This document shows positions 1 through 33,199 of a stretch of DNA of 64,000 bases, piece by piece. Source of the stretch: Thermodesulfobium acidiphilum (GTDB lineage Bacteria; Thermodesulfobiota; Thermodesulfobiia; Thermodesulfobiales; Thermodesulfobiaceae); assembly GCF_003057965.1 (NCBI RefSeq), contig NZ_CP020921.1, positions 1,538,916-1,602,915 on the forward strand. The letters are read 5' to 3'. Below the pieces are notes generated by a model. The model did no database searches, was not told where the DNA came from, and worked only from the letters and a program-made list of their open reading frames with translations. Positions within the stretch are counted from its first letter, which is position 1; each line of letters starts with the position of its first letter. The position numbers and the translations under genes were made by a program.

Positions 1-98
1 CAAAAAAGAACTACATTGACTTTGTTTGAGGCATAAGCATACCCTGTTTTAAAACATAAAGAAAATAATACAATTAGAAATAATATCCTCGATTTAAT
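1..98 (-). CDS. 5' end of a secreted protein running off the window edge; possibly glycoside hydrolase family 57
   Basis: GGAGG (110-106), 7 nt spacer, then ATT opens IKSRILFLIVLFSLCFKTGYAYA-SNKVNVVLF(W): basic N-terminus, hydrophobic core, AxA cleavage site. KVNVVLFW resembles the start of the GH57 WHxHQP motif. Not in the ORF track. Confidence 0.5.
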   Translation of the reverse strand, partial: MKSRILFLIVLFSLCFKTGYAYASNKVNVVLF

Positions 99-160
99 AA
101 AGCTTCCTCCAACAAAGAATTAAGTAAATATAACACATTTTTATAAAAAAGTATAAAAAC

Positions 161-186
161 GGCAGGAGAAAAATACTTCTCCTGCC
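161..186 (-). terminator. Intrinsic terminator after cstA
   Basis: GGCAGGAGAA/TTCTCCTGCC stem followed by a T-rich run on the minus strand. Confidence 0.8.
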
Positions 187-197
187 AAAAATAACTA

Positions 198-2078
198 TTA
201 ATCGCTTGTAGATTTTACAGCGTCAGATCCCGAAAGTATCTTTAACCAAACTCTTATTGAATCGAAAAGTACCCATATTCCCATAGCAAGGAGTAATATT
301 GACAAAAATGCGTTAATTACTCCTGCTACATTCCCCTTCTGTGCCATCGGCAAGAATATATTGGCAAAATTCATCCATGCTGCAGTAAATGTGATCGTTA
401 CCATAAAGGCACCAGGGATCATTGTGACCAAAGAATAAGATATCTTTCTTGTTCTTCTTAAAATTTCAGTAGTAGCAATCAAGAGCGCAAGACAGGCCAA
501 AAGCTGGTTTGATGCACCAAACATAGGCCATATGGTGGAAACATTGCCAGAGTAAAGAAGGTAGCCCCAGAAAAACGAAACCAAAAAACCAGTTAACACA
601 ATACCGAAATTCCAGTGTATATCTTTGAATTTTGGAACAAATATACCCAAAAATTCTTGTAAAAGATATCTTCCAACCCTTGTACCCGCATCTACTGCAG
701 ATAATATAAACATTGCCTCAAACATAATTATAAAGTGATACCAATAACCCATCATACCAGTAAGAAACGGAACATTATCGAAAATATAAGCTATACCTGC
801 TGCAAGAGAAACAGCACCACCCGGTCTACCTACAAGATTTTCTCCTACCAATTGAGAAATATAAGCAACTTGCTGGGTATGCATACCAAGTTTCTGAAAA
901 ACAGCAGGTGCAGTATTTATAGCAAAATAGTCTCCTACAGGCAACACACAAGCAGCAATTAAAGCAAGGGCAGCAACAAAGCTTTCCATTATCATTGCGC
1001 CATACCCAATAAATCTTGCATCAGTTTCACAACTCAGCATTTTCGGTGTAGTACCAGTTCCAACCATACAGTGAAAACCAGATATAGCGCCACAAGCTAT
1101 TGTTATAAATAAATATGGGAATAGTGGACCCGGAATGATTGGACCTCCTCCACTTATAAATTTAGTGAATGGCGGCATTTGTAGCATTGGATGAGCTATT
1201 AATACTCCCAGAGCAATCGCCACTGCTACACCTATCTTCATATAACTGGACAAATAGTCTCTTGGCAAAAGAAGCATCCAAACTGGAAGTACAGATGCAA
1301 AAAAAGCGTAAGTTGGAAGCAAAATTTTCATTGTTTGTTCGCTATAAGTAAAGTATTTCGCAAACTCTGTACCAGGCACAATACTCCCAAGCCATGTTGC
1401 AACAAACAATAATATAACTCCAATTAAAGAGGCTTCACCTATTTTTCCAGGTCTAAAATGAAACATCCAAAACCCCATCAGAAATGCAATTGGAATTGTT
1501 AGACCTACAGTAACTGTCCCCCAGGGAGAACCCTTGAGAGCATTTACTACCGCAATGCTTAAACCAGCAAGAGTGAGAACCATTATAAGAAATATTGCAA
1601 GTGACATTACTCTACCAGTAGGAGTAGAGATTTCTTTTCTAGCAATTTCTGCAATAGACAAACCGCCCTGTCTTACAGATAAGACTAAAACAACAAAATC
1701 ATGTGTAGCACCAGCTATCACAGCACCTAAAACGATCCAAAGAAGTCCAGGCATAAAGCCCCACTGCGCAGCAAGAACCGGTCCAATCAATGGCCCTGCT
1801 CCTGCAATAGCCGCAAATTGATGCCCAAATAAAACATATTTATTTGTGGGCACATAATCTCTTCCGTCATTAATTTTACAGGCAGGCGTCTCTCTACCCG
1901 CATCTAAGCACATTACTTTGGCAGCGAGCCAGGCACTGTAATATCTATATCCAACCGCCCATAAACAGAATCCAAAAACCAGAAGTAAAATTGCGCTTGG
2001 AACACTCATAAGAAAAGAAAGAGCAAATAAAGCAAGTGCACAAAGTAAAACAACAGGCAAAACTACACTCATTTTCAT
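198..2078 (-). CDS. cstA: Carbon starvation protein A (peptide/pyruvate transporter)
   Basis: DGRDYVPT, LFGHQFAAIAGAGPLIGP and IACGAISGFH motifs; many TM helices. Confidence 0.95.
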   Translation of the reverse strand: MKMSVVLPVVLLCALALFALSFLMSVPSAILLLVFGFCLWAVGYRYYSAWLAAKVMCLDAGRETPACKINDGRDYVPTNKYVLFGHQFAAIAGAGPLIGPVLAAQWGFMPGLLWIVLGAVIAGATHDFVVLVLSVRQGGLSIAEIARKEISTPTGRVMSLAIFLIMVLTLAGLSIAVVNALKGSPWGTVTVGLTIPIAFLMGFWMFHFRPGKIGEASLIGVILLFVATWLGSIVPGTEFAKYFTYSEQTMKILLPTYAFFASVLPVWMLLLPRDYLSSYMKIGVAVAIALGVLIAHPMLQMPPFTKFISGGGPIIPGPLFPYLFITIACGAISGFHCMVGTGTTPKMLSCETDARFIGYGAMIMESFVAALALIAACVLPVGDYFAINTAPAVFQKLGMHTQQVAYISQLVGENLVGRPGGAVSLAAGIAYIFDNVPFLTGMMGYWYHFIIMFEAMFILSAVDAGTRVGRYLLQEFLGIFVPKFKDIHWNFGIVLTGFLVSFFWGYLLYSGNVSTIWPMFGASNQLLACLALLIATTEILRRTRKISYSLVTMIPGAFMVTITFTAAWMNFANIFLPMAQKGNVAGVINAFLSILLLAMGIWVLFDSIRVWLKILSGSDAVKSTSD

Positions 2079-2251
2079 ATTCTATTACCCCCATCTTTTT
2101 TATAAAACTAATATCAAAAAAATTTTGTGAGCATTTTCCACCCTCTTTCTATAAAATTCTCTATTTAACATTATACAAAGTATTTTCTAAAATAATAAAT
2201 TGATAAGAATATTCTGAATTATCTTATATATCTTTTCTAATAATAATAAAA

Positions 2252-2277
2252 AAAGAGGAAGATTTCTCTTCCTCTTA
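2252..2277 (-). terminator. Intrinsic terminator after the small ORF
   Basis: AAGAGGAAGA...TCTTCCTCTT inverted repeat with an A-run on the left side. Confidence 0.7.
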
Positions 2278-2297
2278 AGAGAAAAACTTTAAACTAT

Positions 2298-2510
2298 TTA
2301 GACTAAATTACTATTTTGCACAGTATTTGTTTTTGAGCGTAAGTTTGAAGTATTACTGCTTTCTTTTAACGGTTTAGAGTTTTGCGTTAGTTTGGATACC
2401 TGTTGGTTTACCATTGTTTCAAAAAGACTCGCCTTTTTATTGGGTGCTGTATTTTGTGTAATATTCGGTAGAGATCCAGAATCAATTTTGTTAAGGGCCA
2501 TTTCTCTCAC
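2298..2510 (-). CDS. Small low-complexity hypothetical protein (N/S/T/K-rich)
   Basis: SD GGGAG upstream and a terminator downstream; no recognisable domain. Confidence 0.55.
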   Translation of the reverse strand: MREMALNKIDSGSLPNITQNTAPNKKASLFETMVNQQVSKLTQNSKPLKESSNTSNLRSKTNTVQNSNLV

Positions 2511-2566
2511 TCCCTTTTAGTTTAATATTATTATTTATATTATACTACAAAGAGTATCAAAGCCTT

Positions 2567-3598
2567 TTATACTCCTGGGAGATTTATTGCGAAAAAGCCC
2601 TTTAATATATATCCAAATCCTACATATACTGCAAGAACTCCAAAAAGAATATAAAGAAAATTCATTGGCAAATACTTCTGTGTCTTAGGACCAATATATG
2701 CTCCAATTAGTATTCCTGCCATGCCTATAAGAATTGGTGGAGCTATCTTTATGCCAAACATTAACCAACCTACTATTGTTGAAAGCATGCCAAGGGTTAC
2801 TGCCATTACAGATGCGCCTGGAACAATATAGAAGGGAAGTCCAAGAACTATTGAGAGGAATGGAACATAAAGAAATCCTCCTCCTACACCAGCAACAGCA
2901 GATATAAATCCTACCACTACGCCAAACAAAAAAGGTCCGAAGTTTTTTACTTTGAAGTGTTCTCCAAAGAAGTCAAATTCTACTGCTGCTAATCCAAGCT
3001 TTAGGTTTTCAATACCTTTTAATTCACTAAGACGTCCTTCAGCTTTTAACTTCTTTACTTCCTCCTGGAATCTTTTTGCGGCATCTTTACCTTTGCTCTT
3101 TGTCTTTGCTGCAAAGGGGGTTACCTGATAAAACATAAATATAGACACAAGAAGCGTAAGACAACCAAATATGCCTATAACGCTTGACATGTTTAGCTTT
3201 CCACCTGTAAGCCATACCCCCGCTTGAGCTCCTAATACGCTGCCAATACCCATAGCAAGACCAGCAGTCCAGATCAGTCTCTTGTTCAAAAACCACTGTA
3301 TGGTACCCATAGTAGTGTTTACGCTTGTAATAAGTGAGTTAGATAACCTTATATTATCTGACAAATACTTACCTGAATCTATTTCTTTACCACCAACTGA
3401 AGCCTTTATGCCTTTTAAAGAACTAGCCTTTGCACCAAGACCCAATACAGAAATATGGCCAAAACCTGCCATAATACCCCCAAAAGCACCTACAGTTGCC
3501 ATAATCCAACCGTTCCAAATTGACCAAAGAAAATATACTACTGCATCAATCTGAACCTTTTGATCACCAATTTGAAGCCAATCTACTGGAAAGATCAT
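2567..3598 (-). CDS. TauE/SafE family (TSUP) sulfur-anion transporter
   Basis: GFISAVAGVGGGFLYVP repeat motif, multi-TM, SD AGGAGG. Confidence 0.85.
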   Translation of the reverse strand: MIFPVDWLQIGDQKVQIDAVVYFLWSIWNGWIMATVGAFGGIMAGFGHISVLGLGAKASSLKGIKASVGGKEIDSGKYLSDNIRLSNSLITSVNTTMGTIQWFLNKRLIWTAGLAMGIGSVLGAQAGVWLTGGKLNMSSVIGIFGCLTLLVSIFMFYQVTPFAAKTKSKGKDAAKRFQEEVKKLKAEGRLSELKGIENLKLGLAAVEFDFFGEHFKVKNFGPFLFGVVVGFISAVAGVGGGFLYVPFLSIVLGLPFYIVPGASVMAVTLGMLSTIVGWLMFGIKIAPPILIGMAGILIGAYIGPKTQKYLPMNFLYILFGVLAVYVGFGYILKGFFAINLPGV

Positions 3599-3638
3599 AT
3601 TGCCTCCTTTCTAAGATATTATAAATTTTGATAAAGAA

Positions 3639-4427
3639 CTAATTAGCAACTTCTCCCTTTCTAAATACTATTAATGGACAATTTTTACAAACATCTGAAC
3701 CAGGAAATTCATCTCCAGGTCTTACTATAGATACGCTCCCATACTTTTCAATTCTCTCATTGAACCAGGAAACCAAATCTTTTATATCTTCGCCAGGAAT
3801 TACTACGTTAGTCTCGCCTCTCTCAGTCTTACCAGCGTTATAACTACCACTGCAAGCGGGATGTGTTGAAGCAAGTTTCGTATTATAAACATAAACATTA
3901 CCAGCACAAGCTGCAGAGTTCATCGTAACATTCGGTTTCATTGGATGAATATCTCTTAGTGCCATCCAACCCACGCTAAGTTGATAAGCTTGCATATTAT
4001 CACAATAGAAATGAACGACATCTGGGTCAAAATAGGTTTTTCCAAGAGGAGAAACTACAATCGCCTTTAATTTTCCTTCTTCTAATCGTGGCTTAGAAAG
4101 AAGAAATTTTTCAGCCTGTTTCATATCTCTTACATACTTTAAATGACTCTTTACCTCTGCCTCATCAAAACCCTTCCACCCAAATACATACGCTGCATTA
4201 GAACAACCCAAAGCTTCTTTTTCCTGCAGAACTGTAATCCCTTTCATTCTTGGCCCAATTTCTGCCTGACAAAAGGTAAGAGGCTTATTTGGCACGTAAT
4301 AATCCTTTACATTTTTTTTAAAATCCTGTAATTCTTCATCTTTAAAAATAAATTTCACAGCTACAGGAAAATGCATAAACCTAAATTCTTTCATAAGAAA
4401 GTCTTGAATCTCAGAATAGTTTTTCAT
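3639..4427 (-). CDS. DUF169 family protein
   Basis: PVAVKF, TFCQ, GCSNA, AACAG, ACSGS conserved Cys pattern and C-terminal CKNC. Start corrected to ATG 4427 (SD AGGAGGG). Confidence 0.85.
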   Translation of the reverse strand: MKNYSEIQDFLMKEFRFMHFPVAVKFIFKDEELQDFKKNVKDYYVPNKPLTFCQAEIGPRMKGITVLQEKEALGCSNAAYVFGWKGFDEAEVKSHLKYVRDMKQAEKFLLSKPRLEEGKLKAIVVSPLGKTYFDPDVVHFYCDNMQAYQLSVGWMALRDIHPMKPNVTMNSAACAGNVYVYNTKLASTHPACSGSYNAGKTERGETNVVIPGEDIKDLVSWFNERIEKYGSVSIVRPGDEFPGSDVCKNCPLIVFRKGEVAN

Positions 4428-4512
4428 AATCCCTCCTAATTTATTAATATGCTTAATATATAAATTATTATTTTTTATAAAAAATTTTTCAGTCATATCT
4501 ATTGCTAAAAAA

Positions 4513-4528
4513 TGTCATCTATATTACA
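4513..4528. promoter_or_regulatory. Putative Crp/CooA-type operator TGTCA-N6-TTACA
   Basis: Imperfect palindrome in the divergent intergenic region next to a Crp/Fnr gene. Confidence 0.5.
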
Positions 4529-4580
4529 CTATAATTGTATAGTAAAATATATTTATAGACTTAATTAAGAGGGAGATAAT

Positions 4581-5255
4581 TTGGATAATATTTTGTTCTT
4601 AGATAAAGAACTTAAAGAATTTACAGAACAAGAGTGGTCTAAACTTTTAGAAAAAGCAATCGTTATGAAACTTCCTAAGGGTTCTACTGTTTTTTCTACA
4701 TCAGAGAAATCTCAAGGAGTTTTTATAATCAAATCTGGATGGGTAAAGATATCAAGAATTTCAAAAGATGGCAAAGAATCTGTTGTCGGTTGTATAAGAA
4801 ATCCAAAAGAAATTATAGGATTAGCTGAAGTTTTATTAAATAAAAATAGAACTTGCAATGCAGTTGCTATTACGGATATAGAAATAGGTTTCGTAAAAAC
4901 AGAAGATTTTTACAATCTAATAAAAGAAAATTTTGATATTTCTCTTAAAGTAATGAAACTTTTAGCTGAACGCATGAGAGAAGCAGAAGAGAATGTACAC
5001 AATCTAAGCTCCAAATATGTTTCAAAGAGGCTTGCTTCCTTTTTGTACAAAGCTTCTTTCAAATGGGGGATAGACGATAAAGATGGTATAAAAATTCCTC
5101 TAAATTTAACACATGAAGAAATTGCTCAGGTAGTAGGAACAAGTAGACAGACAACTACAAAAGCTCTTAATATATTACAAAAAAACGGCATTATAAAATT
5201 GGAAAAAAAACAAATAAAAATACTTGATGTAAAAAAACTTTTAAGTTATAGATAA
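4581..5255 (+). CDS. Crp/Fnr family transcriptional regulator
   Basis: cNMP-like beta-barrel and HTH LTHEEIAQVVGTSRQTTTKAL. Confidence 0.93.
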   Translation: MDNILFLDKELKEFTEQEWSKLLEKAIVMKLPKGSTVFSTSEKSQGVFIIKSGWVKISRISKDGKESVVGCIRNPKEIIGLAEVLLNKNRTCNAVAITDIEIGFVKTEDFYNLIKENFDISLKVMKLLAERMREAEENVHNLSSKYVSKRLASFLYKASFKWGIDDKDGIKIPLNLTHEEIAQVVGTSRQTTTKALNILQKNGIIKLEKKQIKILDVKKLLSYR

Positions 5256-5257
5256 GT

Positions 5258-5283
5258 AAAGATCCGGGACTTCCCGGATCTTT
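5258..5283. terminator. Bidirectional terminator between convergent genes
   Basis: AAAGATCCGGGA CT TCCCGGATCTTT hairpin. Confidence 0.85.
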
Positions 5284-5291
5284 ATAAAAGG

Positions 5292-6053
5292 CTATGTTTT
5301 TTTAGGTTCAAGAGTTTTTTTAATCCTGAACATAAAAAACAAGTAATCCATACCAAACTTCAAAAGTTCTTCATCATTTTTCTTCATCGTTTCAATTCGT
5401 ACCTTGCTTATTTCGAAAATATCCAGAAATTTAGTATCAAAGACAAATTTTCTAAATTTGTCCAGATCATAAATTGCCATAAAATACAACGAAGCTTCCT
5501 TCTCGTTAAATGGTTCTACTCCCATCACATTTCTTCTAAGAACAAATTCAAGCCAATCTTTGTTCTTCTCTAATAAATAATCTGCTTTTTGATCTTGTAA
5601 CCAATCCCCTACTGTAAATTCTTTGCCTTGAGAAAAACCTTTACAGAATTTTTCTCTAATAAAAAAGAAAAATTCATCTTCAGGATTTGGATCATCCTTT
5701 TTTCTTAAGGCAGCTATTCCGATAGGATAGGTCCTACAAAGAAGTGGCCTGTTTTGATAAATGCCACAACCTTCCTCTTTACTAAAAACACAAACTCTCT
5801 CGTTAGGTTTTAGCATAATTTGAACCATTGGGATCTTAGTTTTCGGATCAATAATTACTTTAGTGTTATTTTGTAAGAATTCTCCTGAGGACTGCCCAAG
5901 AGCAGTCCTCATTTCCAACACGTCGTAGGGAGTTAAAAGTATATCAACATCTCTGCAACATAAATTCCAACAACTTAAATCTTTATTACAACTAAACGTG
6001 AACTTAGAAGACCTATCCAGTGCTACCCTTTCAACAACATCCATATTAGGCAT
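5292..6053 (-). CDS. YkgJ family (CxxCxxCC-like) cysteine-cluster protein
   Basis: FSCNKDLSCWNLCC...CVF...GCGIYQNRPLLCRTYP. Confidence 0.88.
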   Translation of the reverse strand: MPNMDVVERVALDRSSKFTFSCNKDLSCWNLCCRDVDILLTPYDVLEMRTALGQSSGEFLQNNTKVIIDPKTKIPMVQIMLKPNERVCVFSKEEGCGIYQNRPLLCRTYPIGIAALRKKDDPNPEDEFFFFIREKFCKGFSQGKEFTVGDWLQDQKADYLLEKNKDWLEFVLRRNVMGVEPFNEKEASLYFMAIYDLDKFRKFVFDTKFLDIFEISKVRIETMKKNDEELLKFGMDYLFFMFRIKKTLEPKKT

Positions 6054-6073
6054 AAAGAGACCCCTTTTCTAAG

Positions 6074-7261
6074 CTATTCCTTAAGACCATCTGGTTCTCC
6101 ACGATTGGCTAAATTAGAATATGCAAGAGCTAAAGTTCTATAAGCAAGGTGTGCAATTTTAAAGAAAGGCGCATATATAAACAAAAACATAACAAATGTA
6201 AGATGAATAAAATATGTCCAATATGCAATGCTTGCAAGGTTCATAAGTCTAAAGATCTCCGCCCCCATTCCGGTAAGCCCAAGCCCTGCTACAACGATCA
6301 ACAAAAGCCAATCAAAACTTGAATTCGCACCAACTTTAAGGGTTGATCTTGTATTTATCATCCAGATTGCCCCTATAATTAGTGCTATTCCAGAAACGTT
6401 ACCAAGTATTTTTACAGGATCATATAAGGGATATGGGGAAGGATACCTCAAAACCCACTCATATACCGATGCAGTAGCAGTTGTAAGGAATAGACCCACA
6501 AAAGACCAAAAAACAAGTAAATGAGTAGTAGATCTGACCTTCATAGTATCACAAAGTTTAAACCTTACAGAAGTAAGCGCTTCCCAAATAATACTAGCAA
6601 ATAACCCTATAATACTACCTTGAAACATAACAGGATAAGGTCTTTCAGAATTTAAAGCCTTCCAATAGTTAGATAAACCTATCCAAAAACAAATTACAGC
6701 AAACAAGGCAGCTGGCAAAAAGAAGATATCTATTCCAGTTACAGTTGGAAACAATTTTGCAAAAACAATTTTACCTGCAGTTGAATGCTCGCCCTCAATT
6801 GATAGATTTACTAGAGCCTGTGGATTTACAAGATATTGTAATTTCCCATTGAGCATAAGATCTATCAAGAGTATAACCACTGGCAAAAAAAAGGCAAACG
6901 GCCACATTGCAGGTTTGCTTACAAGTTTAGCCAAAAATTTTACAGGCGCATACTCTTCTATTGTAATTTTTCTTAAAGCACCCAAAACATCACCAGGCTT
7001 TGCACCTCTTGGACAGTACGCTGTACAATCTGCACACTGATGACATAGCCAGATATCAGCGTCTTTAAGAAGTGCATCTTTCATTCCCCACTGTGCCATA
7101 ACCATTTCTTTTCTTGGAAATGGTGAATTATTAGGAGCAAGATTACAAACAACAGAACACGTAGCGCATTGATAACACTTTTTAACGCTATCGCCTCCGT
7201 TAGCAATAATTTCCTTTATGAAATCTAAATCAGTCTTTACAATTTTTTTCGCCATTTTCAT
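6074..7261 (-). CDS. qmoC: Quinone-interacting membrane oxidoreductase subunit C
   Basis: N-terminal CYQCATCSVVC and CHQCADCTAYCP clusters plus a heme-b TM domain; follows qmoB. Confidence 0.95.
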   Translation of the reverse strand: MKMAKKIVKTDLDFIKEIIANGGDSVKKCYQCATCSVVCNLAPNNSPFPRKEMVMAQWGMKDALLKDADIWLCHQCADCTAYCPRGAKPGDVLGALRKITIEEYAPVKFLAKLVSKPAMWPFAFFLPVVILLIDLMLNGKLQYLVNPQALVNLSIEGEHSTAGKIVFAKLFPTVTGIDIFFLPAALFAVICFWIGLSNYWKALNSERPYPVMFQGSIIGLFASIIWEALTSVRFKLCDTMKVRSTTHLLVFWSFVGLFLTTATASVYEWVLRYPSPYPLYDPVKILGNVSGIALIIGAIWMINTRSTLKVGANSSFDWLLLIVVAGLGLTGMGAEIFRLMNLASIAYWTYFIHLTFVMFLFIYAPFFKIAHLAYRTLALAYSNLANRGEPDGLKE

Positions 7262-7267
7262 CCTCCC

Positions 7268-9415: not shown

Positions 9416-9417
9416 TA

Positions 9418-10680: not shown

Positions 10681-10708
10681 CTACCCTACCTCCAAATAAT
10701 TTAAAAAA

Positions 10709-21876: not shown

Positions 21877-22266
21877 CTAATCCTCCATTACGTTATTTTT
21901 AAATCTAATACATTTTTTTATTTCTTTTTTCCAACACATTTTACATCCTCTTCTACAAGCTTTATCCGGATCTAAAATCTTATAATTGCCGCCAGATATT
22001 ACAAAAGGCCTTCCAAACCATATAGACTGAGCAACTTTAACTCTTGCTGATTTTAATATTCTGCAAAAAGTCGGTGCCGATACCTGCATACTTCTTGCTG
22101 CTTCCTGAAAATCATAGTTTTCCAGATCTACCAACCTTAAAGCCTCAACTTCTTCATAAGTCAAAACGTTTGCCATCTCAAGGCAAGAAGATTGGCAATC
22201 TACAGGCTTGAAGCATTTTATAGCAGGCACACAAAATAGCCTTCTTTCTTTCGGTGGTCTTGCTAC
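21877..22266 (-). CDS. DUF134 family DNA-binding protein
   Basis: EEVEALRLVD...AA.SMQVSAPTF.RIL..AR.KVA. The conserved N-terminus ARPPKER lies upstream of the track's GTG and begins at GTA 22266. Confidence 0.88.
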   Translation of the reverse strand, partial: VARPPKERRLFCVPAIKCFKPVDCQSSCLEMANVLTYEEVEALRLVDLENYDFQEAARSMQVSAPTFCRILKSARVKVAQSIWFGRPFVISGGNYKILDPDKACRRGCKMCWKKEIKKCIRFKNNVMED

Positions 22267-22282
22267 TTTTATTCCTCCTAAT

Positions 22283-22308
22283 TTATTATGAAATATATTT
22301 CATAATAA
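22283..22308. promoter_or_regulatory. Perfect 26-bp palindrome (operator) overlapping a minus-strand promoter
   Basis: TTATTATGAAATATATTTCATAATAA is its own reverse complement. TTGACA (22329-22324), N16, TATTAT on the minus strand. Confidence 0.75.
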
Positions 22309-22357
22309 TACAAAAAAAAATTATGTCAAGTATCAATCAAATCAGTTAAGGAAACTC

Positions 22358-22620
22358 TCAAAGTATTGTTAGCTGGGATGACCATTTGATAGCCTCCATA
22401 TATGCCATTATCACATCATCAAAATTTAATTTCAATTGCTCCGATAATTTTAAGAATTTATCTACTTCTGTTTTTTCATAAGAGATAACGAGTTCTAAAA
22501 CTTGAAAATAGATATTTTTTCCCATCAAAGCATCCTTATACAAGAGTATTAATGAAGTTTGTATGCTTTAACTTTCATATTTTTATTGAATATTGGATGT
22601 CTCGCTACAACAACATCCAC
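22358..22620 (-). pseudogene. Internally deleted EAL-HDOD (YuxH-like) gene
   Basis: SD+GTG opens MDVVVARHPIFNKNMKVKAYKL (YuxH-like N-terminus), abutting KDALMG...LELVISYE...AYMEAIKW (HDOD C-terminus). Confidence 0.8.
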
Positions 22621-23928: not shown

Positions 23929-23940
23929 CTATGCTTTCTG

Positions 23941-24321: not shown

Positions 24322-24391
24322 AATTATTTATTTTAACATGATTCTAAAGTTTTGATATAATAATCAAAATAAGAAACTTCTGGAGGAAAGA

Positions 24392-24976
24392 ATGTTTGAA
24401 CTTGATTGCAGAGGAATGGTTTGCCCAAAACCAGTAGTTCTAACAAAACAAGCTCTCAAAGAACATGATGAAATAATAGTTATAGTTGATAATAAAACTT
24501 CAAGAGATAATCTTAACAATCTTGCAAAAGATAAAAACATGCACTTCGAAGTAGAAGAAAAAAACAACTTATATTATTGCAAAATAAAAAAAGGTAAGAG
24601 TGAACAACCTCAGGAGAGAAAACTTGAAAATTTTTATGGGCAAGCCCCTTGGAGCGTTTTTATAAAATCAAATACTTTAGGACATGGAAGTGACGAACTT
24701 GGCAAGAATCTTATAAATGCCTTTTTTGATGCCATTTTATATTTTGAAGACCACCCAAAGGTTATTGCTTTTATGAATTCTGGCGTTTTTCTAACTCTGC
24801 AAGATTCTGAATGCTTAAAAGAAATTAAAATGCTTGAGGAGAAGGGTTCAAAAATACTAGTTTGTGGAACCTGCCTAAATTTTTTTAACGTTAAGGAGAA
24901 GCTCGCAGTTGGCAAAGTTTCTAATATGTTTTCTATCTTAGAATCCCTTAAAGGAACTTATATAATAGAACCTTAA
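24392..24976 (+). CDS. yedF: YedF-type sulfurtransferase-like selenium metabolism protein (TusA + DsrE domains)
   Basis: LDCRGMVCPKPV, LGHGSDELG..L, MNSGV, CGTCL, VGKVSNM. Confidence 0.9.
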   Translation: MFELDCRGMVCPKPVVLTKQALKEHDEIIVIVDNKTSRDNLNNLAKDKNMHFEVEEKNNLYYCKIKKGKSEQPQERKLENFYGQAPWSVFIKSNTLGHGSDELGKNLINAFFDAILYFEDHPKVIAFMNSGVFLTLQDSECLKEIKMLEEKGSKILVCGTCLNFFNVKEKLAVGKVSNMFSILESLKGTYIIEP

Positions 24977-24980
24977 AATT

Positions 24981-25730
24981 CTAAGAAGTTTCTTCTTGAT
25001 ATTTTATTTGTCTAATTTCACGCATATTTTTATCTATCATTTCCATTATCTTTTTTGAAGATCTTGAAGAATCCTCAGCTAACTTTCTAACCTCTTTTGC
25101 AACTACCGCAAACGTCCTACCAGCTTCTCCTGCTCTAGCCGCTTCAATACTGGCATTCAAAGAAAGTATATTTGTCCTGCCTGCAATGCTTTCCACAACC
25201 TTCACGGCCTCTGATACCTGTTCTTGAGTTTTAATTATGTGTTCAAGTTGTTCTGAGAAATAGTTGTCAATAATTAATTGGATGTCGAGTATAATCCTTT
25301 TAACAAAAGCACTAAAGGATTTTGCGAATTCAGATTCATCCTTTTCTACTTCGTGGACTATAGAAGAGATTTCCTCAAAATAAAGTCTATAAGCTCCTAA
25401 ATACCACGAAGGATAAAGTCCTATTAATTGGTGTTTTTTGCCAACAAAGAGCCTTCTTTGAAAGTACTCTTCATCTATTACAGGACTTGTAAGAGAGATA
25501 AAGTAATCCCTCATAGTTTTACTTAATCTTTCTAATGTAGAATTTTTATCAATTATTTCTTTAAGGTTTGAAAAGCTAGTAATGTGATCGTAAAACCTTT
25601 TCACAAAGCTATCTGCCTTCTTTTCAAAATAAGGCCTAAACTTTGCCATCCTTTGTAAATCTTCGATAGTAAGACCTAAATAACGAAATCTCTGCTGATA
25701 TTTTGAATCATTAGTTAAGTTTTCTTCCAT
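24981..25730 (-). CDS. Globin-coupled sensor (HemAT-like) with a short MCP signalling domain
   Basis: [18 protein letters not shown] globin; [31 protein letters not shown]. Confidence 0.92.
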
Positions 25731-25822
25731 CCCGCACCACCTATTTTTTGTTTCTAATAATTATATATCAATATTACTTAATTTTTAATGCCTCTTTTCT
25801 ATGTTAAAATTCTAAAGATAAG

Positions 25823-26713
25823 TTGAAAACAGATTTAACAAAAAATAACTTGATAGGTTATATTTTCACCATAGGTGCTGCATCTTTATGGGGTTTTGGG
25901 GGGTGTGTGGCAAAATTTGCCTTCAATAAATCTATTGACCCTTTATTGTTTGTAAAGATAAGACTTGTTATGTCATTTTCAATACTTTTTATTTACCTTT
26001 ATTTCTTTAATAGAAAACATATACTCATAGATAAATCTGATATCCTATATTTTTTAATTTTAGGAATATTTGGTATGTCTACTATGCAACTATTTTATTT
26101 AATGGCTATAAAGTATACAAACGTATCTACTGCCGTCTTTTTGCAATACACGTCACCTGTTTTAATGGCTTTATATTTGTACTTTTTTGAGAAAAATCTT
26201 ATCTCGATACCAAAGGTAATGGCAATCTCACTCTCCTTAATTGGAGGCGCATGTTTTGCAGCCAATATGGCAGAAACATCTCTAAAGTTCCAGGGATTCT
26301 TTTACGGGATACTAGCTGCATTAGGAATGGCTTTTATAAGCGTTTATGGTAGAAAGTCCTTAAAAAAATATAGTCCTTTGACACTTATACTTTATTCCTC
26401 TGGCTTTGCAGCAATCTTTATCAATATAATTACTCCATTCGACATCACAATTTTCAGTCTGTCCAAATCGACATGGTTAATATTAGTTTATTTTTCTATA
26501 TTCTCAACATTAATTCCATATTTTCTATATTTTAAAGGAGTTTCAATAATAAGCCCTACAAATGCAGGGATTACAGCATGTTTAGAGCCATTCATTGCTT
26601 CGATTGTTGCATTTTTTTGGCTTAAAGAGAACTTGACAACTCTACAAATTATTGGTGGAATTTTAATTGTTTCAGGAGTTATAACTTTACAAAAATTTGA
26701 CAGATTACCATGA
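25823..26713 (+). CDS. EamA/DMT family transporter
   Basis: About 10 TM; AVFLQYTSP and LEP..A motifs. Confidence 0.9.
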   Translation: MKTDLTKNNLIGYIFTIGAASLWGFGGCVAKFAFNKSIDPLLFVKIRLVMSFSILFIYLYFFNRKHILIDKSDILYFLILGIFGMSTMQLFYLMAIKYTNVSTAVFLQYTSPVLMALYLYFFEKNLISIPKVMAISLSLIGGACFAANMAETSLKFQGFFYGILAALGMAFISVYGRKSLKKYSPLTLILYSSGFAAIFINIITPFDITIFSLSKSTWLILVYFSIFSTLIPYFLYFKGVSIISPTNAGITACLEPFIASIVAFFWLKENLTTLQIIGGILIVSGVITLQKFDRLP

Positions 26714-27561
26714 ATCTAATTTTTGGCCCAGCCGGTAATGAAGAACTCTTTTATAAATCAGGATTCAAATCAACCTTAGATTCTGCAAAATACATCTCAA
26801 AAATGGGGCTTTTTGCATTTGAATATCCGCTCACTCACGGCATAAGGCTAAGCGAGAGCACTGCTGTAAAAATAGGGGAATCTTTTAAGAGTGAGAATAT
26901 AAAGCTTAGTATTCATGCACCATATTATATAAATATAACAAGCCCAAATCCAGAAATATTAGAAAAGAGCGAAAAACATTTGATAAAAACATTGCAGTTT
27001 GGAAATTTGATGGGCGCTGATAGAATAATATTTCATCCAGGAAGTTCTAAAGGAAATAAAAGAAAAGTCATGCTAGAAAGATCTTTTAGTTTTTTAGAAC
27101 AATTTATCAGTAGAAATATAAAATTAATAAAAAACATTAAGCTTTGTCCAGAAACACACGGAAAGAGCATTAGTTTAGGAAATGTTGATGAAATAATAGA
27201 AATATGCAAAATAAATTCCGAGATCTTTTTGCCAGCCATAGATTTTGCTCATCTTTATGCTGTTAGTAAAGGGAATTTGACTCGAGAAGAAGATTTTACT
27301 AGTATCCTTAAGAAGTTTAAAAATTATAAAGAACTTCACATACATTTTAGTCAAATAGAATTTAATAATAGTGGAGAAGTAAGACATAGACCTCTAAACT
27401 CAGGTTTTGGACCACCAATTGATCCTTTCTTATTAAGTCTCTTAAAAAATTCTGTAAAAGGAAGGGTGATAGTTGAAACTCCTGGCACTCAAGCAAGAGA
27501 TGCTAAAATATTACTAGAAAGATTTTTAGTTCTGGAGGGAAAAGGTGTCAAACCCATATGA
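26710..27561 (+). CDS. nfo: Endonuclease IV-like TIM-barrel protein
   Basis: SIHAPYYIN, FHPG, PET.GK...G, IDFAH, HIHFS.IE, GE.RH. Confidence 0.85.
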   Translation: MNLIFGPAGNEELFYKSGFKSTLDSAKYISKMGLFAFEYPLTHGIRLSESTAVKIGESFKSENIKLSIHAPYYINITSPNPEILEKSEKHLIKTLQFGNLMGADRIIFHPGSSKGNKRKVMLERSFSFLEQFISRNIKLIKNIKLCPETHGKSISLGNVDEIIEICKINSEIFLPAIDFAHLYAVSKGNLTREEDFTSILKKFKNYKELHIHFSQIEFNNSGEVRHRPLNSGFGPPIDPFLLSLLKNSVKGRVIVETPGTQARDAKILLERFLVLEGKGVKPI

Positions 27562-27919
27562 CAAAGCACATGAATTAGCTAAATCAATCAAGGATTCACA
27601 AGAGTATAGCGAGCTAACTAAATCAATAGAATTAGTAAAAAGTGATGAAAATCTTTATAAAATGGTCAAAAATTTCTTCACCCTAAAAACCCAGATAGAG
27701 ATAGACATGCTTTCTGGAAAAGAAGAAAGTAAAGAAAAGAAAGATAATCTAAAAAGGCTTCATGATCTTGTAATGGCAATACCAGAGGGCAGAAAAATAA
27801 TCGAATCACAATACAGATTTCAGAGATTGATGGGCGATATCTATAAAATAATCGGTGAAGCTATTAACGAAGGGATGGAATTTTTTAACTTTCTTCAAGA
27901 AAAAGAAGAACAAAAATAA
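27545..27919 (+). CDS. YlbF/YheA/YmcA family regulator
   Basis: NPYDKAHELAK.I..S.EY...DIYKIIGEAI. Confidence 0.88.
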   Translation: MSNPYDKAHELAKSIKDSQEYSELTKSIELVKSDENLYKMVKNFFTLKTQIEIDMLSGKEESKEKKDNLKRLHDLVMAIPEGRKIIESQYRFQRLMGDIYKIIGEAINEGMEFFNFLQEKEEQK

Positions 27920-27926
27920 TATATTC

Positions 27927-28268
27927 CTATCCAAAAAGCTTGTCAAATGGTCTCCTCTCAGGAACAGTTACTCGTTTATCTGGGTTTTGATTCCATTCAT
28001 GACTAACATACAAACCACAATAGCACGATCCATATTCTTCAACGTCTTTATCTTTATACACACAAGGACATATAATATCTCTATCTCTTTCCCTATCACC
28101 AGAGTTCAACCGACAGGGGCAGCCCCTATAACCATTTCTTTTCTCATTTTCCAAAATTCCCCTTATAATTGACATTGTATGTTCTAAATCGTTATTTAAC
28201 TCTTGTCCTTTAGAATGCGCATATTTTGTCAAAATTTCAAATAGTTTCTCAGGGGTTACAGGGGCCAT
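27927..28268 (-). CDS. Ferredoxin:thioredoxin reductase catalytic subunit
   Basis: CPCR, IICPC and CYCGLY motifs. Confidence 0.93.
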   Translation of the reverse strand: MAPVTPEKLFEILTKYAHSKGQELNNDLEHTMSIIRGILENEKRNGYRGCPCRLNSGDRERDRDIICPCVYKDKDVEEYGSCYCGLYVSHEWNQNPDKRVTVPERRPFDKLFG

Positions 28269-28271
28269 GCT

Positions 28272-28532
28272 TTACACTAATCCTTTAATTTTTGCTTCAT
28301 TAAAACCTACTATAATAGTTTCCCCTTTAACTATAGTAGGAAAACCAGGATTAACCTTAGGATTACATTTATCAGCAAATTTCTTGACTGTTTCAAGAAT
28401 TTTGTTTTGTTCATCCTTTGGAAGTAAATCTACATCAATAGCCTCAAAATCAGCTCCTAATTCTTTAAGAAGAGCTTTAGCCTTCTTACAATAAGGGCAG
28501 GTGCTTAAAGCATATACTGTTATCTGAGCCAT
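28272..28532 (-). CDS. Glutaredoxin/NrdH-like redoxin
   Basis: YALSTCPYCKK, GFPT, IVGF; ATG 28532 after GGAGG. Confidence 0.92.
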   Translation of the reverse strand: MAQITVYALSTCPYCKKAKALLKELGADFEAIDVDLLPKDEQNKILETVKKFADKCNPKVNPGFPTIVKGETIIVGFNEAKIKGLV

Positions 28533-28546
28533 AAAAACCTCCAAAA

Positions 28547-28840
28547 TTAAGCTGAATTTTTTTCTATTTCCCTTAAAAGCTTGTATATGACTTTAAAAGT
28601 TAAAACCTTTGAAGTCCTGGCAATAGCATGAGACAAATCATCTGCAGAATAAACATTGCAATTTTGAAGATAAATAGAATCTTGTACGCTAAAATTATTC
28701 TCTTCCATAAAAAGCTCAGGGTCGAAGGCTAAAATTCCATTCTGCTCACCGTAGTAAATTTTCAATAAAGAGGAGAGCAATTCAGTAGCGGAAATATAAT
28801 TACCTATTTGACTGGATGAATCTACAATCTGATAAAACAC
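28547..28840 (-). CDS. Hypothetical protein
   Basis: Strong SD AAGGAGGTGA then GTG; co-oriented with grx. Confidence 0.7.
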   Translation of the reverse strand: MFYQIVDSSSQIGNYISATELLSSLLKIYYGEQNGILAFDPELFMEENNFSVQDSIYLQNCNVYSADDLSHAIARTSKVLTFKVIYKLLREIEKNSA

Positions 28841-28918
28841 TACGGTTCACCTCCTTGAATTTAAGAAACACGAGAATAATTCAACATTTTTTGCAATTAT
28901 AAACCACAAGCCTAAAAA

Positions 28919-29086
28919 CTATAAATCTTCTGAAATATCTTCTTCACTTTCACCAAAAATTGACTCATAGAGCTTTACAATACTACTTTCAATCTCAAGA
29001 TCCAAAGCTCTAATCTCTTTTTCCAACTTCCTATATTCATTTTCAGCTTCACTTTTAAGAATTTCTAGTTGATCTTCAAAGTTCAT
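28919..29086 (-). CDS. Small acidic coiled-coil protein (55 aa)
   Basis: Hand translation MNFEDQLEILKSEAENEYRKLEKEIRALDLEIESSIVKLYESIFGESEEDISEDL; below the ORF-track cutoff. Confidence 0.6.
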   Translation of the reverse strand: MNFEDQLEILKSEAENEYRKLEKEIRALDLEIESSIVKLYESIFGESEEDISEDL

Positions 29087-29390
29087 TTTCCAAACCTAAA
29101 ATTTGAATTACGAGATATTTCATAAACATTATCTTAATTATATATTACTTTATAACTTTAGTCACTTTTTTGGAATATAATAATTTCACTAGCAATTAAC
29201 ATTAAATAATTAAAATTTTAGCATACATCCAATAAAAAATGCTTTTTTGGCTAAACTTCCAGGAAAAAATATCTTTAATCAAATTAGGCACGCAATCTTG
29301 AGAAAAAAAATCATATTTCAAGGCAATCCTAAAATAAATTAATTAACAAAACCTATTCTCTTTTATCAAATTCATTATAAAATATATCAA

Positions 29391-31940
29391 ATGGAGTTAG
29401 ATTTTTATTATGGAAAAGATAAAAAAGAAAGAGAAAGCTTTGTAATATATCACCTGCGCGACCGTCTCCTTTACGGTCGAAAGATATTGTTTGAGAGAAC
29501 CATCTCAGGTTTCATTGACCCTCTGGAAGTAGAAAGTTATTTAAACAAACTATACAGGGAAGTATGTTCTGACATATTAAAATTCTGCATAATAGAAGCA
29601 AGGGGAGAAGGATTCCCAGAAGAAGATATATGCATAGCTGCTGTTGGTGGTTTTGGTAGATGTGAGATGGCCCCTTATTCAGATATTGATTTAGTTTTTT
29701 TGTCCCAAAACGAAGAAGGACCTTTTTTAGATAACGTTCTAAAAAGAGGCTACAGACTTTTGTCAGATATCTTTTTTGGTATAGATTTAGAAGTCGGCTA
29801 TAGTTTTAGAACTACAGAAATAAAACACATCGACCACATTACAAGAACCAGCTTTCTAGATTCTAACATTATTTCTGGAGATAATAACATATTTCAAGAA
29901 TTCAAAAGAAATTTTTGGAATAGATTAAACTTAGCAGAATTCATATTTGTAAAGTTATCAGAAAGAGAAATAGCGTCACAAAAGTTCGGCGATAACCCTT
30001 ATTTATTAAGCCCAAACTTAAAGGAATGTAGGGGTGGGCTTAGAGATTATCATACATTTAAATGGATTTTTCAGAGTAGGTATGCACTTTCAAACTGTTC
30101 AATTGCTAAAGATGTAGAAAATACTTATATTTTGGATAAAGATGATATCAATAGGCTCGAATCGTCATATCGATTTCTTAGAAAAATAAGAATCTTATTA
30201 CATATAATGGCCAGAAAAAGACAGGATTATCTTTCAAAAAATTATCAACCAAGGTTAGCAGAATTTTTAGGTTATAAAAACTCAGTAGAATTTATGAAAG
30301 AATTAATTTATTATCTTGAAAATATCTCAGAAATATCAAGCAGAGGAATAAAAAAGATACTTCAAGAAGGTTTTCAAATTTCAAGTTGCTTCTCAATAAA
30401 AGGAAACAGTATTACTTATCAATATGACTCTCCTATTCAAATTTTTAGATTCGATTTCATAAGAGCTTTTGAATATAAATCTCTTTACGATCTGGAATTA
30501 TCAGTAAATCTTGAAGAAGAATTTATCAAACAACGCAGCAAACTAAAACCCAATGATGAGACTATGAACGTATTTTTAAAAATCCTTAAAAATGGAAAAA
30601 ACAAAGCTTCCATATTAAGAAATATGCAATCTTTGGGTCTGCTTGAAATACTGATACCAGAAACCAGGGGAATTTTTTATACTTTACCCGAAGATCCCAT
30701 GCACGAATTTACTATTGGAGAACACACAATGGTTATGATTGAAACTCTCGAAATGTTTGAAAGAGGCGATTTTGGACAAGAAATAGCAGAAATATTTAAT
30801 TCTTTATCAAACCCACTTGTTTTATATCTTGCAGCTTTATTTCATGATATTGCAAAGTTAAAAAATTCAGAAAATCACGATATAGAAGGTGCAAAAATAT
30901 TTTCTAACTGGGCAAAAAAAACTAGATTAGATCAGAATACTATAAATAACGTTAGTTTTATCATAGCAAACCATCTTCAAATGGTAAGAACTTCAAGATT
31001 AAGAGACCTTCACAGAGAAGAAACTATTGAAGAATTCGCTCAATTAGTTTCAGACACGGAAAGGTTAAAAAACTTATATCTTATTTCTTATGCAGATTTA
31101 TATTCTTTGTCAAAAAAGAAACCAAGCCCGATATCAATTTATCAGCTAAACGAGCTTTTTAAAAAGAGTCAATCAAATTTACTAAGGCCTGCATCAAAAA
31201 CAGACTTTAAAGACGTATTTAAAAAGAATATAAAAAAGAATCTGCCAAACAAAGATGAAATAAATCTCTATATTGACAACATGCCTGCTACTTATTTAAT
31301 GAACATACCACAAGAAATTATTGCGTTTCATTTGGACCTTATTTCCAGATTAAAAAACGAAACGCCTCAAGTATATTTTGAAGAATCAATCAACAAAGAC
31401 TTTTCTAAAGTTACAATTGCTACATATGAGATTGAAGGGCTCCTGTGGAAAATAGCAGCAGTATTTTATGCTCACAATTTAGATATCCACACCGCTGAAT
31501 TATACAAGTTCTCCACAAAACCACCGGTAGTAATTAACGAAATTTGGACAACTTTCAAAAACAAACCAGTTCCTGAGTTTTTAGCGCAATCAGTACAGAA
31601 AGATTTGCGCGATACTCTTAGTTTAAAAAGAGATATATTTGAACTATTAAGACAGAAAAACAAAGATATAGAATTTCCCGTAAAGCTTTTCAACGTTAAT
31701 TGTTTAAACAATATATCCCCTAAATCAACTGTCATAGAAATAATAGCTGAAGATAGACACGGACTTTTGTATAGGTTAACTCAGACCCTATCCTCTCTTG
31801 GACTTTACATACAAACAGCAAAAATTTCCACCTGGGAAGGTAGAGCTGAGGATGCATTTTATATTACAAAGGAAAATAACTTAAAGTTAAGTGAGCAAGA
31901 ATGCCAAGAATATTTGAAAAAAATAGTTTACCATATATAA
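29391..31940 (+). CDS. glnD: PII uridylyltransferase/uridylyl-removing enzyme
   Basis: AVGGFGR.EMAPYSDIDL, PNLKE.RGGLRD, H.FT..EH, LFHDIAK, two ACT domains. Confidence 0.93.
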   Translation: MELDFYYGKDKKERESFVIYHLRDRLLYGRKILFERTISGFIDPLEVESYLNKLYREVCSDILKFCIIEARGEGFPEEDICIAAVGGFGRCEMAPYSDIDLVFLSQNEEGPFLDNVLKRGYRLLSDIFFGIDLEVGYSFRTTEIKHIDHITRTSFLDSNIISGDNNIFQEFKRNFWNRLNLAEFIFVKLSEREIASQKFGDNPYLLSPNLKECRGGLRDYHTFKWIFQSRYALSNCSIAKDVENTYILDKDDINRLESSYRFLRKIRILLHIMARKRQDYLSKNYQPRLAEFLGYKNSVEFMKELIYYLENISEISSRGIKKILQEGFQISSCFSIKGNSITYQYDSPIQIFRFDFIRAFEYKSLYDLELSVNLEEEFIKQRSKLKPNDETMNVFLKILKNGKNKASILRNMQSLGLLEILIPETRGIFYTLPEDPMHEFTIGEHTMVMIETLEMFERGDFGQEIAEIFNSLSNPLVLYLAALFHDIAKLKNSENHDIEGAKIFSNWAKKTRLDQNTINNVSFIIANHLQMVRTSRLRDLHREETIEEFAQLVSDTERLKNLYLISYADLYSLSKKKPSPISIYQLNELFKKSQSNLLRPASKTDFKDVFKKNIKKNLPNKDEINLYIDNMPATYLMNIPQEIIAFHLDLISRLKNETPQVYFEESINKDFSKVTIATYEIEGLLWKIAAVFYAHNLDIHTAELYKFSTKPPVVINEIWTTFKNKPVPEFLAQSVQKDLRDTLSLKRDIFELLRQKNKDIEFPVKLFNVNCLNNISPKSTVIEIIAEDRHGLLYRLTQTLSSLGLYIQTAKISTWEGRAEDAFYITKENNLKLSEQECQEYLKKIVYHI

Positions 31941-31999
31941 TTTCTAATTTGCTCTACGTCAAATAAACTTATTAAGAACCATTTAAGGAGGAAAAAACA

Positions 32000-33199
32000 A
32001 TAGATATCAAGAAAATAATCGAAGATTTTTCAAAAATTAGTTCTAAGAATGAAGAAGTCTTTCGCTTGGGATATTCAGAGGAAGAAGATAAAGCTATTAG
32101 TTATGTTTTGAAATTACTTCCAAAAAATTTTGAAATCAAAACAGATAATATCGGAAATTTGATCGCAATGCACAATCAAGATCCTTTATCCCAAAAGGTT
32201 TTACTCGGTATTCATCTTGATACAATGCCATTTAGCGGCAAATATTCATCGTCACTTCCTATGATAGTAGCAATTGGTTCTATCAACAAATTGTTAGAAA
32301 AGGATTTTTATCCGAAGAAAACAGTGGGCTTAATAATCTTTAGAGCCACTTCTCCAAACAGGTTTTCCAGGGGTTGCATCGGTTCAAGAGGAGCGGTAGG
32401 AGAGCTAAACGAAAGAGATCTGTATCTCTCAGACAAAGACGGAGTATTGCTGCAAGATGAAGTAATAAAGAGAAGCCTTGGGCTTTCAAGCAGTTTTCCT
32501 ACCTTTTTTAAAGACGATGTACATACTTTTTTAGAGATAGAAAGCGACTTTTCTGGTATATTGAGCGAAAAATCTGTTCCACTTTGTATGGTAAAAAATC
32601 AACAAGGCCCAGTTATTTTAAAATTATCCATCGTAGGCAAAATTCAATATACCTGTTGCACTCCATTTAATTTAATTAGAGGTCCTTTAAATGCTTTTAT
32701 AAAAATTTTAGATCTTCTTTATAAAATGATAAAAGAGAATAATCTATTCGGTGGAGTATACGAGGTTAATATGGAACCAAAAGTCATGGGAGTCTTTCCA
32801 AACAGAATAAACTTTAACCTTGATCTTAGATCCCCAGATCTAAAGTTAAGAAGTGAACTTCTTAATAATCTAAAAACTATGATAAACAAAATATCTGAAG
32901 AAGAAAGTTGCCAAATAGATATTTTAAGCCAAATATCTCATTCTCCTCACATCTTTTCTGATAAATTAATCGAAATTTCAAAAAGGGTATTTTTAAAAAA
33001 GAATATCAAACTTATAACAATTGACACTGGAATCTTATCCAATGCAAGGTGGATGAGTCTGGTAAGTCAGGAAACAGGAATGGTGTTATTAAGATACAAG
33101 AAAGGAAATTCGCCTGAAAAAGAAGATATAAACGAAAATGATATAATCCTAAGTATTGATGTTGTAAGTAACATATTAAGGGAGAGGGTTTCTTTATGA
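32000..33199 (+). CDS. M20/allantoate amidohydrolase homologue with degenerate metal site
   Basis: D.IGNL, G.HLDT, RF...CIGS, P....F.LDLRS fold motifs; probable ATA start 8 nt after AAGGAGG. Confidence 0.75.
   Translation: MDIKKIIEDFSKISSKNEEVFRLGYSEEEDKAISYVLKLLPKNFEIKTDNIGNLIAMHNQDPLSQKVLLGIHLDTMPFSGKYSSSLPMIVAIGSINKLLEKDFYPKKTVGLIIFRATSPNRFSRGCIGSRGAVGELNERDLYLSDKDGVLLQDEVIKRSLGLSSSFPTFFKDDVHTFLEIESDFSGILSEKSVPLCMVKNQQGPVILKLSIVGKIQYTCCTPFNLIRGPLNAFIKILDLLYKMIKENNLFGGVYEVNMEPKVMGVFPNRINFNLDLRSPDLKLRSELLNNLKTMINKISEEESCQIDILSQISHSPHIFSDKLIEISKRVFLKKNIKLITIDTGILSNARWMSLVSQETGMVLLRYKKGNSPEKEDINENDIILSIDVVSNILRERVSL

Follow-up and report, generated by a model that had tools for sequence, protein, structure and literature searches.

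Conserved near-cognate start codons behind ordinary Shine-Dalgarno sites: a probable genus-wide set of translation starts in Thermodesulfobium

The stretch of DNA analysed here (the window, 64,000 nucleotides, G000:C1:1538916-1602915) is part of a complete genome of 1,774,794 bp with a G+C content of 33.7%, which was assigned to the genus Thermodesulfobium because the closest proteins in the databases carry this name. Three genes in the window had been proposed to start at ATT (site i), GTA (site ii) and ATA (site iii) behind strong Shine-Dalgarno (SD) sequences. Our analysis indicates that the three sites are, in all likelihood, real near-cognate starts and part of a set that comprises at least 20 genes across the genus, in which such codons would act as stable weak starts. 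Throughout, ATG, GTG and TTG were regarded as canonical, and ATT, ATA, ATC and CTG, which are among the alternative starts of NCBI translation table 11, were counted as near-cognate. The genome (G000) was compared with those of three other species of the same genus (G001, G002 and G003), while the next-nearest genome in the collection is related at the level of 'same domain' only.

Site i lies at the edge of the window, where the 5' part (1..98, minus strand) of a gene of 329 codons runs off the sequence. The gene comprises a signal peptide, a thioredoxin-like domain with a CPHC motif and a VKOR domain. As predicted, the ATT at 98-96 follows a GGAGG (106..110) at a distance of 7 nt, the frame is closed upstream by a TAA at 122-120, 8 codons away, and no ATG, GTG or TTG occurs in this frame down to base 1. 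The first canonical codon (TTG or ATG) is found 58 codons downstream, past both the signal peptide and the CPHC motif. The protein reaches the family score of Pfam VKOR (PF07884; 52 bits, cut-off 27.5); for Thioredoxin_4 the score stays under the cut-off (18.9 versus 23.2 bits), with the CPHC motif present. The ATT is kept in all four genomes, with GGAGG 5-7 nt before it in each.

Site iii is the start of a gene of 399 codons on the plus strand (32000..33199) for a divergent protein of the M20 amidohydrolase type. Again the predicted arrangement was found in every detail, with AAGGAGG (31985..31991), a spacing of 8 nt, ATA at 32000-32002 and an in-frame TAA at 31973..31975, which is 8 codons upstream. 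The first canonical codon is the TTG at 32066..32068, 22 codons downstream, which is unconserved and reads TCT in G002 and G003. In contrast, GGAGG-N8-ATA is present in all four genomes. A promoter-like TTGAAA-N16-TATAAT (11 of 12 matches) precedes the gene at 31914..31941. The protein aligns with its residues 3-393 to positions 9-406 of the 413 positions of NCBIfam NF006771 at 155.7 bits (cut-off 399), and scores 142.4 bits against TIGR01879 (cut-off 204), while no Pfam family was found at E <= 0.01. With family cut-offs not reached, the alignments identify it as a putative divergent relative of allantoate amidohydrolases and hydantoinase/carbamoylase amidases.

Site ii opens a DUF134/UPF0251 gene of 129 codons on the minus strand (21877..22266). 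The GTA at 22266-22264 stands 7 nt behind an AGGAGG (22274..22279) that is kept in the relatives, an in-frame TGA (22302-22300) lies 11 codons upstream, and the first canonical codon is a GTG (22228..22230), 12 codons downstream. These elements agree with the original prediction, as does the loss of 12 conserved residues that a start at the GTG would cause. The further claim that this GTG has no SD holds only in the sense that a GGAG core is missing, since AGAAGG occurs 9 nt before it. The GTG itself varies, being ATA in G001 and TTG in G002 and G003. The protein matches PF02001 with 72.4 bits (cut-off 27), its residues 2-97 aligning to profile positions 5-97 of 98, and distant DUF134 homologues begin with MPRPRK. 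The codon at the proposed start is GTA in G000 versus ATA in G001, G002 and G003, while the SD stays the same and promoter and palindrome are conserved. Contigs from three other metagenome runs likewise carry the promoter followed by AGGAGGAG-TAAAA-ATA GCA AGA (gene strand, read from the printed consensus). Two positions of GTA, 1 and 3, mismatch AUG, one more than in the near-cognates as defined above. For this reason, and since ATA stands in the relatives and the contigs, site ii is predicted to be a member of the near-cognate set ancestrally, by its ATA, while the allele of G000 is not.

The promoter-like element of site ii is a TTGACA-N16-TATTAT (22302..22329, minus strand) with 11 of 12 matches, conserved in the genus. 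It would leave a leader of about 30 nt, and the in-frame TGA overlaps the end of its -10 hexamer. Together with the palindrome tatgaaatatatttcata it occupies 22283-22333 on the minus strand, a stretch that is conserved in the genus. Contigs of three other metagenome runs match it with 100% identity and diverge to both sides of it. The stretch looks like a strongly constrained operator. A comparison of the window with Rfam gave no family at the gathering score.

The original prediction had called for a genome-wide scan, which revealed a significant excess of near-cognate codons in frame. In a strict scan of G000, GGAGG sites were paired with open reading frames (ORFs) of at least 100 codons that have an upstream stop within 30 codons and no canonical codon upstream. 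Among the resulting 364 SD/frame pairs, 328 have a canonical start within 10 nt, 10 have it at a distance of 11-16 nt, and in 26 it is farther away. The 328 starts comprise 221 ATG, 79 TTG (24%) and 28 GTG, which bears out the earlier remark that many genes start at TTG or GTG. For the 26 pairs with a distant canonical start, near-cognates account for 14 of 43 in-frame triplets at a spacing of 5-9 nt versus 3 of 87 out-of-frame triplets (Fisher p = 1.1e-5). A wider scan accepted any GGAG core, applied a codon-usage (coding-potential) filter and required a near-cognate in frame 5-9 nt after GGAG with no usable canonical start. It yielded 28 near-cognate ORFs (11 ATT, 8 ATA, 5 CTG and 4 ATC) beside 460 canonical ones. 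Here near-cognates make up 31 of 92 in-frame triplets compared to 10 of 183 out of frame (p = 2e-9), and compared to the background frequency of 9.7% for near-cognate codons (codons 2-30) the binomial p is 3e-10. At 28 per genome about 1.0 case would be expected in 64 kb, so the three sites of the window represent a mild local excess (Poisson P = 0.08).

Two unrelated complete genomes, G023 (34.9% G+C, similar SD use) and G030, were processed with the identical script, 0.8 Mb of each, and showed no in-frame excess of near-cognates in these samples. G023 gave 4 near-cognate versus 262 canonical ORFs (4 of 50 triplets in frame, 4 of 100 out of frame) and G030 gave 5 versus 273 (5 of 92 and 14 of 193). 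Compared to the pooled controls, the Fisher odds ratio for G000 is 3.6 (p = 6e-4). Within G000 itself, the SD classes [^G]GAGG and AAGGA[^G] showed no significant in-frame excess.

The proposed starts agree with the N-termini of known families. A comparison of 20 candidates with NCBIfam gave a family match for 17, and 14 of these 17 profiles begin within 13 residues of the proposed start, namely those of YebC, SMC, ThyX, IspE, RsmI, a GNAT, LivH, GmhB, a Gfo/Idh/MocA dehydrogenase, RNase J, LpxC, FPP synthase, RqcH and a response regulator with GGDEF. In several cases the alignment starts almost at the first residue (YebC residue 2 on profile position 2, SMC 2 on 1, ThyX 3 on 2, IspE 4 on 5). 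The remaining three matches comprise two uninformative ones and one, TtuA, that is contradictory.

Orthologues were found in all three relatives for 18 of 19 queried genes; the orphan gene at G000 - 987400 (ATA) gave none in the three relatives with the query used. In 15 of the 18 genes the near-cognate codon is identical in all four genomes (ATT in 10, ATA in 2, CTG in 2 and ATC in 1). The GNAT gene is counted among the 15, its ATT being displaced by one codon in G002 and G003. For mscS the start reads ATA, ATA, ATC and ATC from G000 to G003, and the response regulator has CTG in G000 and TTG in the three relatives, which fixes the position of its start by a canonical codon. An ATG at these sites in close relatives would have spoken for misread or decayed starts, yet the 54 codons of the relatives at the 18 sites include neither ATG nor GTG. 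As a separate observation, the mscS orthologues of G002 and G003 (L066 and L067) each contain one in-frame TAG within the match.

The stretches between the near-cognate codon and the first canonical codon appear to be under purifying selection in most genes, site iii in the comparison with G002 and G003 being the exception. Synonymous versus non-synonymous changes amount to 11-12 versus 3 for YebC, 17-18 versus 7 for SMC, 4 versus 0 for RNase J, and 4 versus 0 for site ii compared to G001. The start codons themselves are also retained, as 12 of 13 ATH starts are identical between G000 and G003, compared to a background of 0.62 for synonymous isoleucine codons (p = 0.018). Altogether, 20 near-cognate starts are backed by family N-termini or orthologues and are predicted to open, among others, smc, rnj, ispE, ispA, thyX, lpxC, gmhB, yebC, rsmI and infC.

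The start of lpxC lies 6 nt past an upstream in-frame TGA, rqcH overlaps the end of the preceding gene, and the start of rsmI probably coincides with the stop codon of the gene before it or directly adjoins it. Translational coupling or re-initiation may therefore ease the demand on the start codon at lpxC, rqcH and probably rsmI.

Among the components of initiation, infC (G000:C1:274042-274581, outside the window), which encodes IF3, starts in all four genomes with ATA behind GGAGGTG, and residue 1 of the Geobacillus IF3 chain aligns with residue 2 counted from this ATA. The conserved ATA is read here as the signature of IF3 autoregulation. When the IF3 of the genus is set against the consensus of its 117 nearest homologues, it departs from it in 16 of the 70 columns with a conservation of 80% or more. 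Of the 32 columns conserved to 98% or more, two are altered, with S/T in place of E at residue 16 and in place of G at residue 158. In the C-domain, the 'EGR' loop reads 'ESEK', and a one-residue insertion was noticed in the N-terminal IRAxEVRL motif. The other parts have an ordinary appearance. An unusual initiator tRNA was ruled out by the canonical C1xA72 mismatch, the three G-C pairs and the CAU anticodon (three tRNAs with CAU were found in all). The 3' tail of the 16S rRNA, ...GGATCACCTCCTTTCT, and its P-site stretches look canonical by eye, which speaks against an altered P-site or anti-SD sequence at this level; the stretches inspected are those around the presumed positions 1338-1339 and 1400-1402, in comparison with E. 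coli. A loss of RsmH or KsgA was likewise ruled out, as both score above the cut-off in all four genomes.

The gene for RsmI, the 16S C1402 2'-O-methyltransferase (G000:C1:208171, outside the window), has an ATT start in all four genomes. In E. coli, loss of C1402 methylation raises initiation at non-AUG codons. A feedback loop via the ATT start of rsmI itself is conceivable.

Based on these observations, the following mechanism is proposed. An ordinary initiator tRNA with a CAU anticodon would be set onto the near-cognate codon by ordinary SD pairing 7-8 nt upstream. This codon is AUU for site i and AUA for site iii, and for site ii the ancestral AUA is replaced by GUA in G000. The set of at least 20 genes would use ATT most, followed by ATA, CTG and ATC, and would include housekeeping genes as well as infC. 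Since the codons are kept across the divergence of four species, they would represent stable weak starts, probably sensitive to IF3, and not decaying ATGs. That ribosomes initiate at these codons, with what efficiency, and that IF3 levels modulate the process is inferred from sequence. For the three genes of the window near-cognate initiation is the only reading that fits, and the suspected habit holds for the lineage as a whole, with the 28 candidates of the wider scan, 20 of them supported by homology or by orthologues. The part of the original prediction that attributed start selection to a dominance of the SD was not borne out. The 23 near-cognate starts compared have a mean of 5.96 paired bases compared to 6.23 at the 460 canonical starts (p = 0.17), and an extended SD that would compensate for the weak codon can thus be discarded. 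The ATA of infC and the otherwise canonical parts argue for ordinary proofreading alongside weak starts that are deliberate and unusually numerous, in other words for a known mechanism at an unusual frequency.

A different cause, the one suggested in the original prediction, would be relaxed proofreading, in which the divergent IF3 penalises near-cognates less, so that ATT, ATA, CTG and ATC, and even GTA, become comparable to TTG and GTG and accumulate. We consider this doubtful, although not without merit. The private substitutions of IF3 and its 'ESEK' loop are a lead only, as private substitutions are usual in any deep lineage and a tie between these residues and fidelity is conjectural; a literature search on IF3 R168/Arg99 gave nothing usable. 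The high use of TTG among strict GGAGG-led starts fits relaxed proofreading as well. Furthermore, near-cognate starts have efficiencies of 0.1-1% in E. coli, with which the presence of such starts in essential genes is hard to square. On the other hand, the retention of ATA at infC in all four genomes makes sense only with an IF3 that continues to discriminate against this codon. The initiator tRNA, the inspected 16S stretches, RsmH and KsgA are ordinary, and the codons do not drift freely among ATT, ATA and ATC. A more far-reaching variant, which we regard as unlikely, combines a checkpoint of lower stringency, caused by the altered N-terminal strand and 'EGR' loop of IF3, with a core regulon of at least 20 genes coupled to the IF3 level via their start codons. 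If true, such a regulon would span chromosome segregation, RNA decay, the synthesis of isoprenoids, lipid A and dTMP, and RsmI, and GUA would be a routine start, too.

Neutral decay would need no change of the machinery, as A+T pressure and weak selection would turn ATG into ATA or ATT and TTG into CTG in genes of low expression and without any regulation. The low G+C content, the dominance of ATT and ATA in the set, the one CTG whose relatives keep TTG, and the GTA derived from ATA are in line with it. This explanation is nevertheless improbable considering that 15 of 18 sites are identical across four species while synonymous isoleucine codons are only 62% identical (G000 versus G003), that ATG is absent from all 18 sites in the relatives, and that the two controls, one of them with a similar G+C content, show no excess. 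Even less can be said for the public gene calls, according to which translation starts at TTG 32066, at GTG 22230 and at the TTG or ATG 58 codons into the gene of site i, the upstream sequence being untranslated leader. Stored lengths of 377 and 117 amino acids reflect this, but the supposed leaders are in frame, show purifying selection and would code for the signal peptide plus the CPHC motif of site i, for the (M)xRPxKxRR that defines the DUF134 family and for the amidohydrolase profile positions 9-30, and the downstream codons are unconserved, TTG 32066 being TCT in G002 and G003 and GTG 22230 being ATA in G001. We regard these calls as almost certainly wrong. Equally remote is the explanation by sequencing or assembly errors of ATG. 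It finds a foothold at the GTA, which is seen in one genome with one spanning contig. For ATT and ATA it is refuted, since the same sites recur in four separately assembled genomes, and the ATA of site ii was found in three further metagenome runs.

Several observations weigh against stable near-cognate starts as the reading of the whole set. About 5 of the 28 candidates of the wider scan are expected by chance, the controls consist of two partial genomes of 0.8 Mb only, and G000 stands out little from G023 in raw GGAGG counts if the coding filter is omitted (14 versus 328 against 3 versus 154). The ATA start of the TtuA-like gene (G000 + 1173451) was rejected, as the profile begins at an ATG 6 codons downstream. 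At site i, the relatives have canonical codons in frame upstream, namely an ATG in G001, 5 codons before the ATT, and a TTG in G002 and G003, 4 codons before it. Both codons adjoin the SD or overlap with it, neither is preceded by an SD, and both are missing from G000; in the three relatives they could be usable as starts. The 22-codon extension at site iii is weakly conserved compared to G002 and G003, with 3-4 synonymous versus 7 non-synonymous changes. Further objections concern the GTA of site ii, which a single genome shows and for which no other solid case turned up genome-wide. The sole contig spanning it (X1, 21880-22400) has one unlocated difference in 521 bases and may come from the same sample as G000. 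The GTA would accordingly represent the change of one genome from ATA and not a third habitual start codon, and its function as a start is doubtful.

The original prediction also expected systematic errors in the annotated N-termini. To our knowledge, common gene finders enforce ATG, GTG and TTG starts. Several proteins are indeed stored in truncated or mis-started form. The protein of site iii is listed with 377 amino acids instead of 399 in G000 and in T. narugense (calls that begin at TTG 32066), and with 394, 332 or 324 in other relatives. The DUF134 protein of G000 is stored with 117 amino acids (MPAIKC...), starting at the GTG, and IF3 with 183 amino acids, from a GTG within the SD. The effect is not universal, as the DUF134 protein of T. 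narugense is stored with 129 amino acids and the start MARPPKERR, which means that the ATA was taken as the start there. Three JGI calls of the DUF134 gene (P0129-P0131) begin with LYYYEIYFIIIGGVK, from a TTG in the -10 region, and thereby read through the promoter and the SD.

Near-cognate starts have been described in other bacteria. For E. coli two confirmed cases are given, infC and pcnB, both with AUU (10.1101/063800). As proposed for Thermodesulfobium, an SD precedes the near-cognate and the initiator tRNA decodes it, and infC has a non-AUG start in both (ATA in this genus). While E. coli infC is autoregulated via IF3, the IF3 sensitivity of the Thermodesulfobium starts is presumed. Furthermore, the two cases of E. 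coli contrast with at least 20 here, in a genome of less than half that size and across housekeeping functions. Retapamulin ribosome profiling in S. aureus mapped four sites, infC, ccpN, citZ (AUA) and cvfC1 (AUU), with about 10% of the activity of AUG (PMC13009471). Low G+C content, strong SD use and the conservation of AUA and AUU starts among species are shared features; unlike the four S. aureus sites, which all have an extended SD, the sites described here do not have longer SDs than the canonical starts, and CTG and ATC are used as well. In Deinococcus deserti, N-terminal proteomics gave 'at least four' cases, dnaA (ATC), rpsL (CTG), Deide_03051 (CTG) and infC (ATA) (PMC2830850). These 'unwonted' non-canonical starts also occur in core genes, are conserved in the genus and led to mis-annotated N-termini, but there the proof is proteomic, whereas about five times as many are predicted here from sequence. 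Compared to these model bacteria, the lineage would tolerate several-fold to roughly ten times the number of near-cognate starts confirmed or mapped. By title or abstract, no publication on start codons in Thermodesulfobium and no cross-genome survey of start-codon usage was found; Hecht Tables S3 and S5 and Baudet Table S5 may hold further counts.

Start choice in bacteria is assumed to be almost entirely restricted to ATG, GTG and TTG, whereas about 5% of the SD-led genes of a culturable genus appear to keep ATT, ATA, CTG or ATC across species. This habit would truncate the protein models of a deep-branching lineage in a systematic way. It would also provide a natural system for studying the strictness of IF3 proofreading, with a possible start-codon regulon tuned by IF3, and defined positions to which ribosome profiling or N-terminomics could be applied. 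Were IF3 the cause, the genus would harbour a natural fidelity variant of a universal factor.

Further observations concern single loci. In the window, a terminator-like hairpin with a T run (160..187, minus strand) marks the end of the gene upstream of site i. Like the promoter-like elements before sites ii and iii, it leaves just a short leader for initiation. A tRNA-Sec gene was found at G000:C1:221880-221973. The control genome G023 contains an AAGGAGG-N7-ATA on the minus strand of G023:C1 (index 791347, counted from the end of the joined 800-kb sample), and the frame that starts there begins like PdxA, IQRAIGITLGDPAGIG. This ATA is a plausible start, and isolated near-cognate cases would thus exist outside the genus. 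At about 132192 of G000:C1 (minus strand, outside the window), AAGGAGG precedes an ORF of 563 codons with an in-frame TGA directly after the SD and no near-cognate at a spacing of 5-9 nt; the first canonical start of this ORF follows 90 nt further on.

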